NCBI RefSeq assembly: GCF_041886205.1
Contig: NZ_CP169031.1
DNA from: Escherichia coli
Lineage (GTDB): Bacteria; Pseudomonadota; Gammaproteobacteria; Enterobacterales; Enterobacteriaceae
Length of the DNA stretch: 64,000 nt
Strand: one strand, 5' to 3'
Of the stretch, positions 10,716-61,488 are shown in pieces. The notes beneath the pieces are model-generated. The model was given only the letters and a program-made list of their open reading frames with translations. It searched no databases and was not told where the DNA came from. The position numbers and the translations under genes are program-made. Every line of letters starts with the position of its first letter. Position 1 is the first letter of the stretch.

Positions 10716-10732
10716 AAATTAATTAGAGCAAT
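10716..10732. promoter_or_regulatory. C1 repressor operator (16/17 match)
   Basis: aaattaattagagcaat matches the reverse complement of the ATTGCTCTAATAAATTT consensus; lies in the ssb/lyz divergent region. Confidence 0.7.
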
Positions 10733-10865
10733 AATGTATATCTTTGAAACGTGGCTAACAAGTGATTTGCATTATCCTGTGCCTTCTAAAGGGATCGAGT
10801 CAGTCGGTATTGGCTGTGAATGAGTGTTTGTCCTGGAGCGTAAAAAATTCGCTTATGAGGTCTTT

Positions 10866-11423
10866 ATGAAGGGAAAAACAGCCGCAGGAGGCGGTGCAAT
10901 TTGCGCTATCGCGGTGATGATTACCATCGTGATGGGTAATGGCAATGTGCGAACCAACCAGGCGGGGCTTGAGCTGATTGGTAACGCTGAAGGTTGCCGA
11001 CGTGATCCATACATGTGCCCGGCGGGGGTATGGACTGACGGGATCGGTAATACACACGGGGTAACGCCGGGTGTGCGAAAAACCGACCAGCAAATCGCCG
11101 CTGATTGGGAAAAGAATATCCTGATCGCTGAACGCTGTATTAATCAGCACTTCCGGGGCAAAGACATGCCCGATAATGCCTTCAGTGCAATGACAAGCGC
11201 GGCATTCAATATGGGATGCAATAGCTTACGGACCTACTACAGCAAAGCGCGAGGCATGCGAGTAGAAACGTCCATCCACAAGTGGGCGCAGAAAGGGGAA
11301 TGGGTGAATATGTGTAACCATCTCCCTGATTTCGTGAACAGTAACGGCGTGCCCCTGCGAGGTTTAAAGATTCGCCGTGAAAAAGAACGCCAGCTTTGCC
11401 TGACGGGGCTTGTCAATGAATAA
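10866..11423 (+). CDS. lyz: SAR endolysin (T4-lysozyme family)
   Basis: N-terminal Gly/Ala-rich signal-anchor-release segment (MKGKTAAGGGAICAIAVMITIVMG) followed by a T4-lysozyme-like catalytic region (ELIGNAEGCRRDPY...DGIGNTHG); 185 aa as recalled for P1 Lyz. Confidence 0.85.
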   Translation: MKGKTAAGGGAICAIAVMITIVMGNGNVRTNQAGLELIGNAEGCRRDPYMCPAGVWTDGIGNTHGVTPGVRKTDQQIAADWEKNILIAERCINQHFRGKDMPDNAFSAMTSAAFNMGCNSLRTYYSKARGMRVETSIHKWAQKGEWVNMCNHLPDFVNSNGVPLRGLKIRREKERQLCLTGLVNE

Positions 11424-11670
11424 ACTCCGGCAGCTCCGCCGACTTTCGACAATGAAGTTATCGCTGGCGGCGATAGTTTTTGACTCGATTTTCATGGCGG
11501 TATATGTGCTCAATGAGACGTGGCCACTGGAACCGCTATTGTATGCCGGGCTTCGGCTGTGCCTGACATTTTTGAGCATGGCTGCGAGATTGATGCAGCA
11601 GAAAGAAACCGCTTCAGATTGTCCACGCCGCGCGGTGCGCAAATATATGGCACGAAGGCGAAGGCGATAA
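11410..11670 (+). CDS. small membrane protein with basic C-terminus (putative lysis accessory)
   Basis: 86-aa ORF overlapping the lyz stop; hydrophobic core with Arg-rich tail; followed by a terminator. Confidence 0.3.
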   Translation: MSMNKLRQLRRLSTMKLSLAAIVFDSIFMAVYVLNETWPLEPLLYAGLRLCLTFLSMAARLMQQKETASDCPRRAVRKYMARRRRR

Positions 11671-11683
11671 TAGTTAACGAGAA

Positions 11684-11709
11684 CCCCGGCAGCTGCCGGG
11701 GTTATTTTT
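11684..11709. terminator. rho-independent terminator between convergent lyz and pro
   Basis: Hairpin ccccggcag/ctgccgggg followed by a T-run. Confidence 0.65.
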
Positions 11710-11714
11710 GGTGG

Positions 11715-57949: not shown

Positions 57950-57966
57950 AAATTTATTAGAGCAAT
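57950..57966. promoter_or_regulatory. C1 operator, perfect 17/17 match, with overlapping second copy
   Basis: AAATTTATTAGAGCAAT exact; a 15/17 copy in opposite orientation overlaps at 57939-57955; overlaps the dmt stop codon. Confidence 0.85.
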
Positions 57967-60221
57967 ATACCTAAAACGTCATGAGCTACACCTCGAGTGT
58001 CCCCCTTACAAGACACAGAACGTCTGGCAAAAAGAGGTTCCACTCTGAAGCCACTGTCATGATAAAGCTCTCTGATATTTGGCGCGCCACTGTTAGTAAT
58101 GAGAACCTTTGCACCTCGACGATGAGCATCCGTCAACAGAGACACCAGGCGTTTTTGCTCTTCAAACTTAAAGTCATGACCGGAATAGTTCGTGAATCCC
58201 TCTGTATTTGGAAGCGGTTCATACGGCGGATCGCAAAAGATGACATCTCCTTCTCCGGCAGCTTCAATCACCGCTGCAAAATCACCGCATACAAACTCAG
58301 ACCGCCCTTCCGCACCGAGGAAGGCTTCCATCTCCTGTAATGGGAAATACGGAGTTTTATACTTCCCATAACCGACATTGAACTCACCGGCCTGGTTGTA
58401 ACGCGTCAATCCGTTAAAACAATGTCGGTTCAGGAACAAAAACGCCGCTGCGCGATGTAAATCATCATAGACTTGTTTGTTAAACGCATTCCGTACTGCC
58501 AGGTATCCTTCCTGTGTGTTGTAGTCCTGGAAGAAACGATGTGCCAGAGTGATAAGTGAATGCGCCTCGCGTTGCAGAGTCTTGTAAAAGTTAATCAGGT
58601 CAGCATTCACATCATTTAGCAGATTTTCCTGGTATCCGGCATTCATGAAGACAGCTCCGCCACCAACGAAAGGTTCAATCAGGCGCTTCCCTTCTGGCAA
58701 ATAGCGAAAGATTTGTTCCAGAACACCAAATTTTCCACCAGCCCATTTGAATATGGACCGTTCGAATTCTGCCGCTGGTTTAACTTTTCGCTCTTTTGTT
58801 TTACTTCCTTCTTTCTGCCGACATACGGCCTTAGTAATCCGATCGCCAATCCAGCGCATTACTGGTATTGCCATACTATTGCCGATCGCTTTGTAACGCG
58901 GTCCGTCAGCTGCAAGCATCGCGGCCTCTTCTTCGCTTAAATCTGGATAGTGATTGCGAAGATATGCCAGTTCATCTGAATTAACTTTTTTACGCTTTTC
59001 CGTCGGGATCAACGTATGCCCATCAGGAAAACCTTGCAGCCTTTCACATTCGACAGGGGTAAGACGGCGGACAGCTACTTCTGCGTTTCTTACTTCATAG
59101 CAAACAGCTGTTGGATTTTTAGCCATTAGAGATGGTGAAGTATTCTTAGTTGCAGCATGTTGTGTACCGCTCATACGCTCAGGAAAAGCCAATGTAACAA
59201 GATGCTCATGGCTTTCTTGCTCACGTGCCCGCAATGTACCATGCCCTTCTGACCAAAAACCTGCTCCTGTGCTGCTAAAAACGGCAAGGTCAGTGGCATC
59301 TTTAAAATCTCTTGCCTTTACTGTCGATGCGGTTTCATCGTCAATATATTCCCCAAATGCTGCCATCCTGAAAGCGTTTACGGCTTTCGTCGATTTCATA
59401 CCGGGTGGAATGTCAGCGTGTAGGCATGGATTTAGGCTTTCGCCACTGATTGCAGCGCCATTTGCAATAATGGCGGAAGCGATTTCCTTCTTTTTTCGGC
59501 TCGGCGCAATATCCCGGCGCACGCCTTCGAACTCAAAAAGTACCGTTGCGGGATCGAGGTCTGTTCGAGCACTTGCGACAACAAACACGCGTCGGCGTCG
59601 TTGTGCCACTCCGAAGTATTGGGCATCAAGGATTCTCCAGGCCACCTTTCGCTGCGGTCCATAAATACAACCACACTGCGGCCACTTTGGAGCATGGCAA
59701 CCGGTTTTGCCATCCCACCGCCAGAACGCGTTACTTTTTCCTGATTCAGGTCGATCACCTGGTTCAAATGGCGCATCTTCTCCAGCCAATCCGGCAAGGA
59801 AACATCCGAAGGCGTTATCTGCCGATGACAGGACTCCTGGGACATTTTCCCAGACGATAACTGTCGGTTTGAGGAAGGACTCAGACCGTTTGTCGTCAAT
59901 TGCATTTGCAAGCTCCACATACTTCAAAGTTAGCGCGCCGCGTTCATCATCAAGCCCACCACGTAAGCCCGCGATACTGAATGCCTGACAAGGTGTTCCC
60001 CCGACGAGCACATCAGGGGATTCGATTTCCCCAGCCAGGACTTTTTTGGCAAGTTTTGTCATGTCGCCAAGGTTGGCGACATGGGGCCAGCGGTGCGCAA
60101 GAACGGCAGATGGAAAAGGCTCGATTTCAGCAAACCACGCCGGACGCATACCCAACGGTTCCCAGGCAATACTCGCGGCTTCAATTCCACTGCAAACAGA
60201 TCCATAGCACAGCTCTTTCAC
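57957..60221 (-). CDS. dmt: Dmt bifunctional DNA methyltransferase (C5-cytosine + Dam-like N6-adenine)
   Basis: 754 aa; N-terminal [12 protein letters not shown] and ENVPG (C5-MTase); C-terminal CDPPYEPL (N6-MTase). Confidence 0.9.
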
Positions 60222-61123
60222 TGCTTAGCCTCTCCACCAAGGGCATTTACCAGAGCATCAACCAGGCACGAAATTTCACTGGTTAACAGGAAGAAATCTG
60301 CGTCCAGTCGCTGCGCAACATCTTCACTATCAATATCAGAGTTCTGCTCAAGCAATTCATCCGCAAATTTGACGCTGGTAAGGCTGAAGTTATGGTCCAG
60401 TGTAAATTTAATGCGGTTCTGCCAGTCGAGTGCCAACTTAGTGACGAGCTTGCCAGCTTCCAGGTGTGTGGAAATTTCATCGCTTCCCAAATCCTGCTTT
60501 TTCACTCGGGCAATACCGCCATCCTCAAGCACTGCCTTAAGTTCTGCCGCATCCCCCATTTGAAATCCCTGTGGAGCACTACCATCACGTACCCAGTCGG
60601 TCAGCGTTAATTCAATGGGATTTTCAACACTCAGGGGAACAACAGGAAGAGAACCAAGAGACTTACGCATAAGCGCGAGCATATCCTCTGCCTGCCGCGC
60701 GCTGGCATTGATATAGATACGTTTAGTTGAACCGTCGTAGATCGCCTGGATAACAGAAAACTTTGAAAAAGCCCGTGGCAGAAGAGAATGCAGAACTTCG
60801 TCTTTCAGGGAGTCCTTCTCTGTTTTCTTCAGTTTACGCGCTTGTTCTTGCTCAAGTTTTTCAATTTTTTCTTGAATAGCTCGCTGGATAACCGGCGGGG
60901 GAAGAATTTTTGTTTCGCGCTTTGCTTCAACAAGGATAAAACCATTTCCATGCATAGCGATAACTTCGGAATTATCACCAAATGGCGATACAAAACCGAA
61001 CTTAGCCATATCCTGACTACCGCATGGCGTGAAAAGGATCATTTTCTTTTTATCTTCTAAGTCGGTCAGATCCGCCTCACGAGAAAGTTTATAAATAGTA
61101 ATGTTTTTCCAGTGCTTAAACAT
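60218..61123 (-). CDS. hrdC: RdgC-like recombination-associated protein (P1 hrdC)
   Basis: 302 aa from [13 protein letters not shown], resembling E. coli RdgC; SD AAGGG upstream. Confidence 0.85.
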
Positions 61124-61463
61124 GTTGTAACCCTTGAATATCAACCACAGAAAGCTCGTCTTTGTAGAAAAAGGCCAGGTTGTGGCACCCCCTCGTTTGA
61201 GCGTATGAGCTGGGACCAATTTCGTTCTTCCAGACAAATGGCTTCAAATCCGTACGGCGAAGCATAAAAACGCGATTTGTTCCGCTCTGATTCCCAATGA
61301 GGCAAAAGCCTTCTTTCACCTTGATAGCCTGCAAGTTGTCGAGTTCACCGCTGGTTACACGGCTATCGAACTCTTTGCGGCTTATTAGCTCCATCTGCAT
61401 CTGACGACTCCAAACAAATGCCCATTGAAGGGCGATGGCTGAATGGTACCGAAAATACGACAT
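61116..61463 (-). CDS. uhr: Uhr-like protein (upstream of hrdC)
   Basis: 115-aa ORF from ATG; operator immediately upstream. Confidence 0.45.
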
Positions 61464-61471
61464 AAAAAACA

Positions 61472-61488
61472 ATATTTATTAGAGCAAT
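61472..61488. promoter_or_regulatory. C1 operator (16/17)
   Basis: atatttattagagcaat. Confidence 0.75.

Follow-up and report, generated by a model that had tools for sequence, protein, structure and literature searches.

C1 immunity repressor operators of a P1-like plasmid prophage in Escherichia coli, with two candidate additions to the annotated set

In this work we describe the operator sites in a 64,000-nucleotide stretch of Escherichia coli DNA (contig NZ_CP169031.1; hereafter, in its entirety, the window), whose sequence identifies it as a plasmid prophage of the P1-like (Punavirus) type; it aligns collinearly with P1 (94-99% identity) in the opposite orientation. Copies of an asymmetric 17-bp motif, ATTGCTCTAATAAATTT, are dispersed through the window and almost certainly serve as operators for the C1 immunity repressor of this P1-type prophage. 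A preliminary description of these copies as a network of C1 operators was correct, and what it described is the textbook C1 operator set, already known. Beyond this set, comparison of related genomes leads us to believe, if only by a little, that the C1 regulon has at least one operator absent from the P1 and P7 GenBank annotation, at 24854-24870. This site is conserved in lineages of Escherichia, Salmonella and Cronobacter, and through it c8 would be directly repressed by C1.

The cognate repressor gene is carried by the same element as the operator sites. The c1 gene (27073-27924, plus strand) is an intact open reading frame of 283 aa, whose product is 99.6% identical to P1 C1.100 and 100% identical to the C1 of other P1 records, and which matches the NCBIfam equivalog model NF041318 (phage_rep_C1) with 610.9 bits against a cut-off of 500. 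In PLSDB, roughly 717 plasmids encode C1. Pfam, searched for C1, Coi, Lxc and C8, contains no family for any of them; NCBIfam, unlike Pfam, has one for C1. Also present are coi (26753-26962, plus strand; 69 aa), the positional orthologue of the P1 gene for the C1 inactivator, and lxc, or bof (21750-21998, plus strand; 82 aa), orthologous to P1 lxc (9750-9998) and encoding the co-repressor that strengthens C1 binding. These findings are chiefly of use for annotation: the element can be recognized as a P1-type plasmid prophage whose C1, Coi and Lxc immunity circuit is intact and whose operator complement is full, and we therefore expect the regulation of its lytic genes to follow that of P1.

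Across both strands of the window, 14 matches to the motif were found at three or fewer mismatches, about 40-fold more than in 100 dinucleotide shuffles (mean 0.33, maximum 4, with none of the 100 reaching 14). A position weight matrix built from 20 annotated P1 operators, a scan that the preliminary description had proposed, gave 16 matches of at least 18 bits, compared with 0.1 in shuffles, and the exact 11-bp core ATTGCTCTAAT occurs in 10 copies, where we estimate approximately 0.03 by chance. All 13 sites previously noted, said to agree with the motif at 13-17 of 17 positions, were reproduced at their coordinates with 0-4 mismatches, the site at 24854 being the weakest with four; the count of "at least 13" had missed those at 23711 (Omat), 26790 (Oc1c), 26962 (Oc1a), 26973 (Oc1b) and 46700 (Oppp), together with a candidate at 14566. 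At exactly four mismatches the four sites observed are not significant alone against 2.5 expected, and approximately 19 matches with five mismatches are expected by chance; for this reason Omat, Oppp, Oc1c and the 24854 site, with four to five mismatches, rest on orthology. Mismatch counting alone was accordingly set aside as uninformative at the 13/17 level. One further four-mismatch match, ATTGCTCATATACATAT at 22380, was judged to be due to chance, as it has no CTAAT core and falls within a GNAT acetyltransferase ORF of non-P1 DNA.

This orthology was assessed against the P1 reference (AF234172 / NC_005856), in which operators are protein_bind features labelled "phage repressor C1". Each of the 17 monovalent operators annotated in the covered P1 intervals has a same-orientation orthologue in the window, 14 of them identical in sequence, with flanks that are 85-100% (mostly 90-100%) identical. 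Substitutions relative to P1 affect 3 of 289 operator positions compared with 48 of 1360 flanking positions (Fisher p = 0.024); for example, Oppp and Odmt are each identical at 17/17 positions amid 12/80 and 10/80 flank differences, respectively. The identity proposed in the preliminary description thus holds one-to-one and in the same orientation for 12 of its 13 sites, with c1 present, the remaining site (24854) being undescribed in P1. Furthermore, Cronobacter phage JK004, whose C1 is 76% identical, carries near-consensus sites at the same gene junctions, namely upstream of uhr, ban, ref, c8, lpa and ssb, in the coi/c1 region, adjoining pap, at the darB 5' end, and at the pmgQ/pmgR and pmgM/pmgO junctions.

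Many of the orthologous sites lie upstream of genes or at promoters, where promoter overlap and adjacency were transferred from the P1 promoter annotation. Ossb (former Op21; ATTGCTCTAATTAATTT, 10716-10732, minus strand, one mismatch) lies between the divergent genes lyz and ssb, some 20 bp ahead of the latter, and is identical to P1 21015-21031, with 95 of 97 positions matching when flanks are included. Omat (former Op2b; TATGCACTAATAAATAT, 23711-23727, minus strand, four mismatches) lies upstream of mat and differs by one substitution from its orthologue at P1 2628-2644, while Oref (former Op2a; ATTGCTCTAATTGATTG, 24377-24393, minus strand, three mismatches) lies within promoter P2ref and is identical to P1 1962-1978. 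In the vicinity of c1, Oc1e (Op99e; ATTGCTCTAATAATTAT, 26415-26431, minus strand, two mismatches) abuts the -35 element of P4cre, Oc1d (Op99d; ATTGCTCTAATAAATTA, 26498-26514, plus strand, one mismatch) lies within promoter P1coi, and Oc1c (Op99c; ATTGCTCTAACGCTTTA, 26790-26806, plus strand, five mismatches) lies within coi, the latter two being identical to P1 over 97/97 positions. Olpa (Op94; ATTGCTCTAATGTATTG, 31235-31251, minus strand, three mismatches) overlaps the -35 element of Plpa, the promoter of the late-gene activator, and OpmgT (Op88; ATTACTCTAATAAATCT, 41841-41857, minus strand, two mismatches) is found directly 3' of the pap stop codon. Among the pmg genes are OpmgRb (Op86b; ATTGCTCTAATAAAAAA, 43934-43950, plus strand, three mismatches), OpmgRa (Op86a; ATTGCTCTAATAATTCC, 43983-43999, minus strand, three mismatches), which covers the -35 element of PpmgR, Oppp (Op83; CATGCACTAATTAATTT, 46700-46716, plus strand, four mismatches), between pmgM and pmgN, and O26 (Op82; ATTGCACTAATAATTTT, 47607-47623, plus strand, two mismatches), in the gp26/pmgL divergent region. 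Odmt (Op68; ATTGCTCTAATAAATAT, 61472-61488, minus strand, one mismatch) abuts the -35 element of Pdmt in the upfC/uhr divergent region. A possible second half-site adjoining Oppp (46711-46727, six mismatches, 11-bp offset) is conserved between P1 and the window no better than its surroundings and is not claimed. For Ossb, Odmt, O26, OpmgRa, OpmgT, Olpa, Oc1a/b, Oc1d and Oc1e, the promoters annotated in P1 are in line with the earlier suggestion that several sites overlap -35 elements or lie in regions of divergent promoters; generic sigma-70 promoter scans around 24854 and 41841 did not find promoters there independently, a result that speaks neither for nor against promoter overlap.

Two of the operators are overlapping pairs. 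Obanab (Op72ab; 57939-57966, both strands) comprises Obanb (57939-57955, plus strand, two mismatches) and Obana (57950-57966, minus strand), an exact match, which are inverted, share 6 bp and are offset by 11 bp. The dmt stop codon TAA (57959-57957, minus strand) forms operator positions 8-10 of Obana, and in the P1 record, too, Obanab covers the end of dmt together with P1ban and P2ban, both promoters. What had been called a perfect overlapping pair does therefore consist of oppositely oriented sites covering the dmt stop codon, with only one half being exact. Oc1ab (Op99ab; 26962-26989, both strands) lies over promoter Pc1, is identical to P1 over 97/97 positions, and comprises Oc1a (AATGCACTAATAAATCT, 26962-26978, plus strand, three mismatches) and the weak half-site Oc1b (ACGAAAATAATAGATTT, 26973-26989, minus strand). 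Both pairs are identical to those of P1, the lone difference within the 97-nt windows being one flank position near Obanab.

We also considered whether the copies could be promoter elements (AT-rich -10 or extended -10 sequences) or generic AT-rich intergenic sequence that involves no dedicated repressor. The core element TGCTCTAAT does resemble an extended -10, the -10 of P1 PkilA lies inside an operator (OrepL), and the P1 counterpart of the 24854 site, TGCTATAAT, is a perfect extended -10. However, the asymmetric consensus is conserved over 17 bp, well past a hexamer, sites also occur within coding sequence (Oc1c in coi, Obana in dmt), 12 of them are orthologous to annotated P1 C1 operators, and their excess over dinucleotide shuffles is not one expected of generic sequence, which together make this explanation highly improbable.

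With the copies read as C1 operators, the P1 annotation and the literature allow us to infer C1 binding at these sites and which promoters are repressed. On specific C1 binding and on derepression when C1 is inactivated, the literature drawn on concerns P1 itself (PMC8546580, PMC4713147). In the lysogen, C1 would recognize sites that overlap or abut sigma-70 promoters and thereby keep early lytic functions off, including ssb, ref, mat, the dmt and ban operons, the pmg clusters, and lpa, whose product would activate all late promoters, while the coi-c1 region would be autoregulated. Op72ab (ban) and Op99ab (c1) would act as bivalent operators through their overlapping inverted sites. Lxc is predicted to strengthen C1 binding through a ternary complex, and C1 would be inactivated by Coi and also by Ant1/2, encoded outside the window.

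The accessory DNA of the window appears to have been left out of this circuit. The non-P1 segments (1-1520, 21996-22943, 33760-41668 and 55737-56328) yielded no new operators in the weight matrix scan; their best matches, at 34030 (12.3 bits) and 22380 (11.9 bits), do not stand out from the shuffles, which give approximately three matches of at least 12 bits per window. Those without operators of their own include the type IC restriction-modification cassette and the segment with the GNAT acetyltransferase ORF, which replaces EcoPI res/mod. The preliminary description had placed operators at the junctions of the restriction-modification island, and this is borne out at the right edge, where the breakpoint of P1 homology (41668) is 173 bp away from OpmgT, which itself lies 249 bp past the hsdR stop codon; at the left edge (~33760-35111) no operator above chance was found, Olpa being 2.5 kb away. 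The promoters controlled by OpmgT here face the 3' end of hsdR. Having no operators, the accessory segments would lie outside the immunity circuit, except possibly by way of read-through from Op88-controlled promoters.

The site at 24854-24870 (ATTGCTCTAATTCTTTG, minus strand, four mismatches), here termed Oc8, is probably a further C1 operator, as comparative evidence suggests. It lies between the cre stop codon and the c8 start, 16 bp before the c8 ATG and co-oriented with c8, is unannotated in P1 and P7, and retains the exact 11-bp core ATTGCTCTAAT. Across 11 genomes, 13 of its 17 columns are invariant compared with 0/17 in adjacent intergenic columns, Salmonella phage SJ1 having been left out of intergenic comparison as its annotated CDSs abut with almost no intergenic sequence. 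The corresponding position in JK004 and two Salmonella plasmids is one to two mismatches from the consensus. If it is bound, C1 would occlude the extended -10-like element TGCTCTAAT included in the core, and the simplest outcome would be that c8, a putative gene for establishing lysogeny, is turned off after C1 has accumulated. The block could instead be conserved as a c8 promoter.

A second candidate, at 14566-14582 (ATTGCCCTAATGTATTT, minus strand, three mismatches), falls within darB codons 19-24 and points towards prt/pro. The P7 record AF503408 annotates the orthologous site (20923-20939) as a "hypothetical monovalent C1-controlled operator Op(pro)", and the homologous position in JK004, ATTGCTCTAATAAATCT, carries a single mismatch. 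From these comparisons we infer a further operator at 14566. Core position 6 of Op(pro) is a C, found in none of the 20 annotated operators, and the core encodes the conserved DarB peptide IRAI, so that its conservation could be due in part to coding constraint.

It is possible, though in our view somewhat doubtful, that the canonical sites are C1 operators and that these two are unbound, one being conserved as the c8 promoter or leader and the other as DarB coding sequence. The four mismatches at 24854, the core mismatch and IRAI coding at 14566, and the fact that neither is in the P1 record are in keeping with this, as is the C7 to A change at the c8 site of P1, which yields a better promoter and a weaker operator. 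Nevertheless, at both positions diverged genomes carry sites one to two mismatches from the full 17-bp consensus, including its 3' half, for which a -10 box has no need and the IRAI peptide none either. Both sites are also co-oriented with the downstream gene, like most annotated operators, and Op(pro) had already been flagged by the P7 annotators. Should the reading of both as operators be true, they extend the canonical list, with P1 itself carrying a weakened Oc8 variant (C7 to A). This comparative support for two sites outside the P1 annotation is a modest addition which, if the sites are real, would refine the regulon of a model phage.

Together, the operators of the window and those of P1 share the same asymmetric 17-bp consensus, gene-relative positions and orientation, and the repressors are essentially identical. 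Relative to P1, one base is changed in each of three operators, OpmgT (G4 to A), Omat (C1 to T) and Oc1e (C16 to A). The P1 operators Oc4, OrepL and Orlf, of immI and the lytic replicon, lie outside the window; in P1 the -10 of PkilA falls inside OrepL. The bivalent Op72ab (ban) and Op99ab (c1) of P1 and P7 are the same inverted 17-bp pairs sharing 6 bp at an 11-bp offset, with no difference found. Op(pro) of P7 and the window site coincide in their 17-mer and in their place within darB, and the site is present in the P7 record and absent from the P1 annotation. Finally, OpmgT in the window precedes the type IC hsd cassette, where P1 has pmgT-pmgV.

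The observation of dispersed binding motifs for C1, the P1 immunity repressor, is correct and statistically solid. All 13 operator coordinates listed in the preliminary description were reproduced, with 0-4 mismatches to the asymmetric 17-bp consensus ATTGCTCTAATAAATTT, which has 14 matches at no more than 3 mismatches on both strands of the window; over dinucleotide shuffles the mean was 0.33 and the maximum 4, with no shuffle attaining 14. The position weight matrix (PWM) scan proposed as a check, using a matrix derived from P1's 20 annotated monovalent operators, returned 16 hits scoring 18 bits or more compared to 0.1 in 200 shuffles, and there are 10 exact copies of the 11-bp core ATTGCTCTAAT. 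Since about 2.5 hits per window are expected by chance at exactly four mismatches, 13/17 sites require evidence besides the motif.

Whole-window blastn against P1 mod749::IS5 c1.100 (AF234172, hereafter the P1 record) revealed a collinear relationship in reverse orientation at 94-99% identity, with window blocks 1521-8512, 10007-21996, 22943-26354, 26355-33760, 41668-53468 and 57030-64000 corresponding to P1 31234-24246, 21740-9752, 3413-1, 94800-87385, 84482-72683 and 69600-62632, respectively. Segments 1-1520, 21996-22943 (in place of the EcoPI res/mod genes), ~35111-41668 (in place of pmgT-pmgV) and 55737-56328 lack a P1 counterpart, which makes the window a P1-like (Punavirus) plasmid prophage of mosaic structure. 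No credible operator was found in these accessory segments by PWM scan against shuffles. A 3-kb probe around the overlapping operator pair, spanning dmt, tRNA-Asn, tRNA-Thr and plp, matched Escherichia phage JL22 (99.8%), RCS47 and P1 (99.1%). The mosaic also shows in the comparison with relatives: JL22 matches the dmt region (57000-60000) at 99.8% identity but the cre-c8 region (24650-25050) at only 92.8%, the latter being nearest to phiW39 and SJ46 (98.8%). The ~950 bp at 21996-22943, where the ~6.3-kb EcoPI res/mod of P1 is missing, carry an ORF for a 202-aa GNAT acetyltransferase (22081-22689, minus strand). In mat, a 1-bp deletion in a G-run relative to P1 (23556-23640, minus strand) interrupts the long P1-style frame, such that the effective ORF starts at an internal MDKKICVV; the resulting product of ~213 aa has the annotated length of the SJ46 maturation control protein.

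The repressor itself is encoded at 27073-27924; the 283-aa product is 99.6% identical to P1 C1.100, 100% identical to C1 in other P1 records, and an equivalog-level match to NCBIfam NF041318 (phage repressor protein C1). The window also has positional orthologs of P1 coi (26753-26962) and lxc (21750-21998); Coi inactivates C1, and Lxc strengthens its binding through a ternary complex (PMC8546580).

The P1 record contains protein_bind features for phage repressor C1, and each annotated operator was extracted and aligned with 40-nt flanks to the window. Counterparts start at 10716 (Ossb, Op21), 23711 (Omat), 24377 (Oref), 26415 (Oc1e), 26498 (Oc1d), 26790 (Oc1c), 26962 and 26973 (Oc1a and Oc1b, bivalent Op99ab), 31235 (Olpa, Op94), 41841 (OpmgT, Op88), 43934 (OpmgRb), 43983 (OpmgRa), 46700 (Oppp, Op83), 47607 (O26, Op82), 57939 and 57950 (Obanb and Obana, bivalent Op72ab) and 61472 (Odmt, Op68); Oc4, OrepL and Orlf lie at ~33-62 kb in P1, outside window coverage. 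Twelve of the 13 sites originally listed correspond to these described operators. The original interpretation is right, with one detail at the island junctions overstated and the list incomplete: Omat, Oc1a, Oc1b, Oc1c and Oppp had been omitted. Fourteen of 17 sites are the same as in P1, the changes being C1 to T in Omat, C16 to A in Oc1e and G4 to A in OpmgT. Divergence is lower in the operators (3/289 positions) than in the flanks (48/1360; Fisher p = 0.024), and Oppp and Odmt are unchanged despite 12/80 and 10/80 flank substitutions, respectively. Overlapping Oppp is a weak inverted half-site, CGTGAAATAATAAATTA (46711-46727, minus strand; 6 mismatches), with the 11-bp offset of Op72ab and Op99ab and similar to the weak Oc1b half-site; it may be due to chance, its non-overlapping part not being the same in P1 and the window. 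OpmgRa and OpmgRb are mutually inverted and flank a perfect hairpin, AAAACGTGATGTACACTCATCACGTTTT (43951-43982), between pmgQ and pmgR.

The overlapping pair (ggtatATTGCTCTAATAAATTTATTAGTGTAATatc on the minus strand) consists of two inverted sites offset by 11 bp and sharing 6 bases. As originally described, it lies across the end of dmt (57957-60221, minus strand), whose TAA stop (57959-57957) forms positions 8-10 of the exact operator; the pair is 'perfect' in one half, the other having two mismatches. Both operator sequences are identical to P1 Obanab, annotated in the P1 record over promoters P1ban and P2ban.

Based on their Pfam domains, three ORFs of the non-P1 block encode a type I (type IC, EcoR124-type) restriction-modification system: N6_Mtase and HsdM_N (35587-37149), Methylase_S (37146-38354), and HSDR_N, ResIII and EcoR124_C (38476-41592). 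Operators had been placed at the junctions of this island. OpmgT lies past the hsdR stop, at distances of 249 bp from it and 173 bp from the P1-homology breakpoint; the other edge has no operator above chance, its best PWM hit (34030) scoring 12.3 bits and Olpa being 2.5 kb distant, so the claim applies to one junction only. The location of the hsd cassette beside Op88 and pap is not new: according to a note in the P1 record, P1 84263-84482, with Op88 inside it, shares 96% identity with the region that follows the EcoDXXI hsd locus, and the same cassette adjoins pap in other P1-size E. coli plasmids. The hsdMSR cassette replaces pmgT-pmgV in opposite orientation, and at this boundary (41592-41857) the Op88-controlled pmgT promoters now face the hsdR 3' end convergently. 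With the T-run of the sole terminator-like hairpin (41786-41808) on the plus strand, antisense transcripts might enter hsdR upon derepression. Between Op88 and the hsdR 3' end, a small ORF unannotated in P1 (41671-41757, minus strand; Shine-Dalgarno caggag) specifies a hydrophobic peptide of 28 aa, MNTAFKIIMAAIYFWLFSITFGGIVAHG; this stretch shares 98% identity with the region that follows hsdR in plasmid R124/3 (P1 record note).

The site at 24854-24870 (minus strand), here termed Oc8, has no operator annotation in the P1 or P7 (AF503408) record. Its sequence, ATTGCTCTAATTCTTTG (ATTGCTATAATTATTTG at the orthologous P1 position), has a perfect core and four mismatches overall, and occupies the gap separating the cre stop from the c8 start, in the same direction as c8 and 16 bp ahead of its ATG. 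We aligned the cre-c8 region of 11 genomes: the window, P1, P7, SJ46, JL22, MH422554, RCS47, 813R1, Cronobacter phage JK004 and two plasmids of Salmonella. C1 of these two plasmids shares 86-87% identity with JK004 C1, and that of the Newport plasmid 79.5% with the window C1. Invariant Oc8 columns number 15/17 in eight P1-group genomes and 13/17 in all eleven, compared to 4/17 and 0/17 in the 17 columns directly upstream, a clear phylogenetic footprint. Such a block could alternatively have been kept solely as a promoter, as TGCTCTAAT (TGCTATAAT in P1) is a plausible extended -10 promoter of c8; in the diverged genomes, however, the site is near consensus along its full length (ATTGCTCTAATAATTTA in JK004, upstream of a C8 homolog of 51% identity; ATTGCTCTAATAATTTT in both Salmonella plasmids). 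Oc8 is probably an additional C1 operator, and bound C1 could plausibly occlude the c8 promoter, akin to P1, where the PkilA -10 lies inside OrepL (P1 record). P1, P7 and 813R1 share a C7 to A variant, which we read as a weakened site.

A further candidate absent from the original list, ATTGCCCTAATGTATTT (14566-14582, minus strand), has 3 mismatches and sits within codons 19-24 of darB, facing prt/pro; the identical 17-mer is annotated in the P7 record as 'hypothetical monovalent C1-controlled operator Op(pro)'. The equivalent JK004 codons contain ATTGCTCTAATAAATCT, with 1 mismatch, and this 16/17 match far exceeds chance. In the core, JK004 differs from P1 by a synonymous AGG to AGA substitution; the core encodes a conserved peptide, IRAI, and coding constraint therefore confounds its conservation.

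A PWM scan over all of JK004, on which P1 proteins were placed by tblastn, identified sites close to consensus at gene junctions matching those of P1: ahead of uhr, ban, ref, c8, lpa and ssb, in the coi/c1 region, adjoining pap, between pmgQ and pmgR, between pmgM and pmgO, and at the darB 5' end. JK004 also carries an operator-like sequence, TTTGTTCTAATAAATTG (70485-70501, minus strand; 3 mismatches), immediately upstream of its lxc homolog; P1 lxc promoters are described as free of C1 control (PMC8546580). The shared junctions indicate that the dispersed network is a conserved family feature, fitting a known regulon. The sole increment over that regulon is comparative support for two candidates, Oc8 and the previously hypothetical Op(pro); the system is otherwise the textbook C1 regulon of P1, already known.
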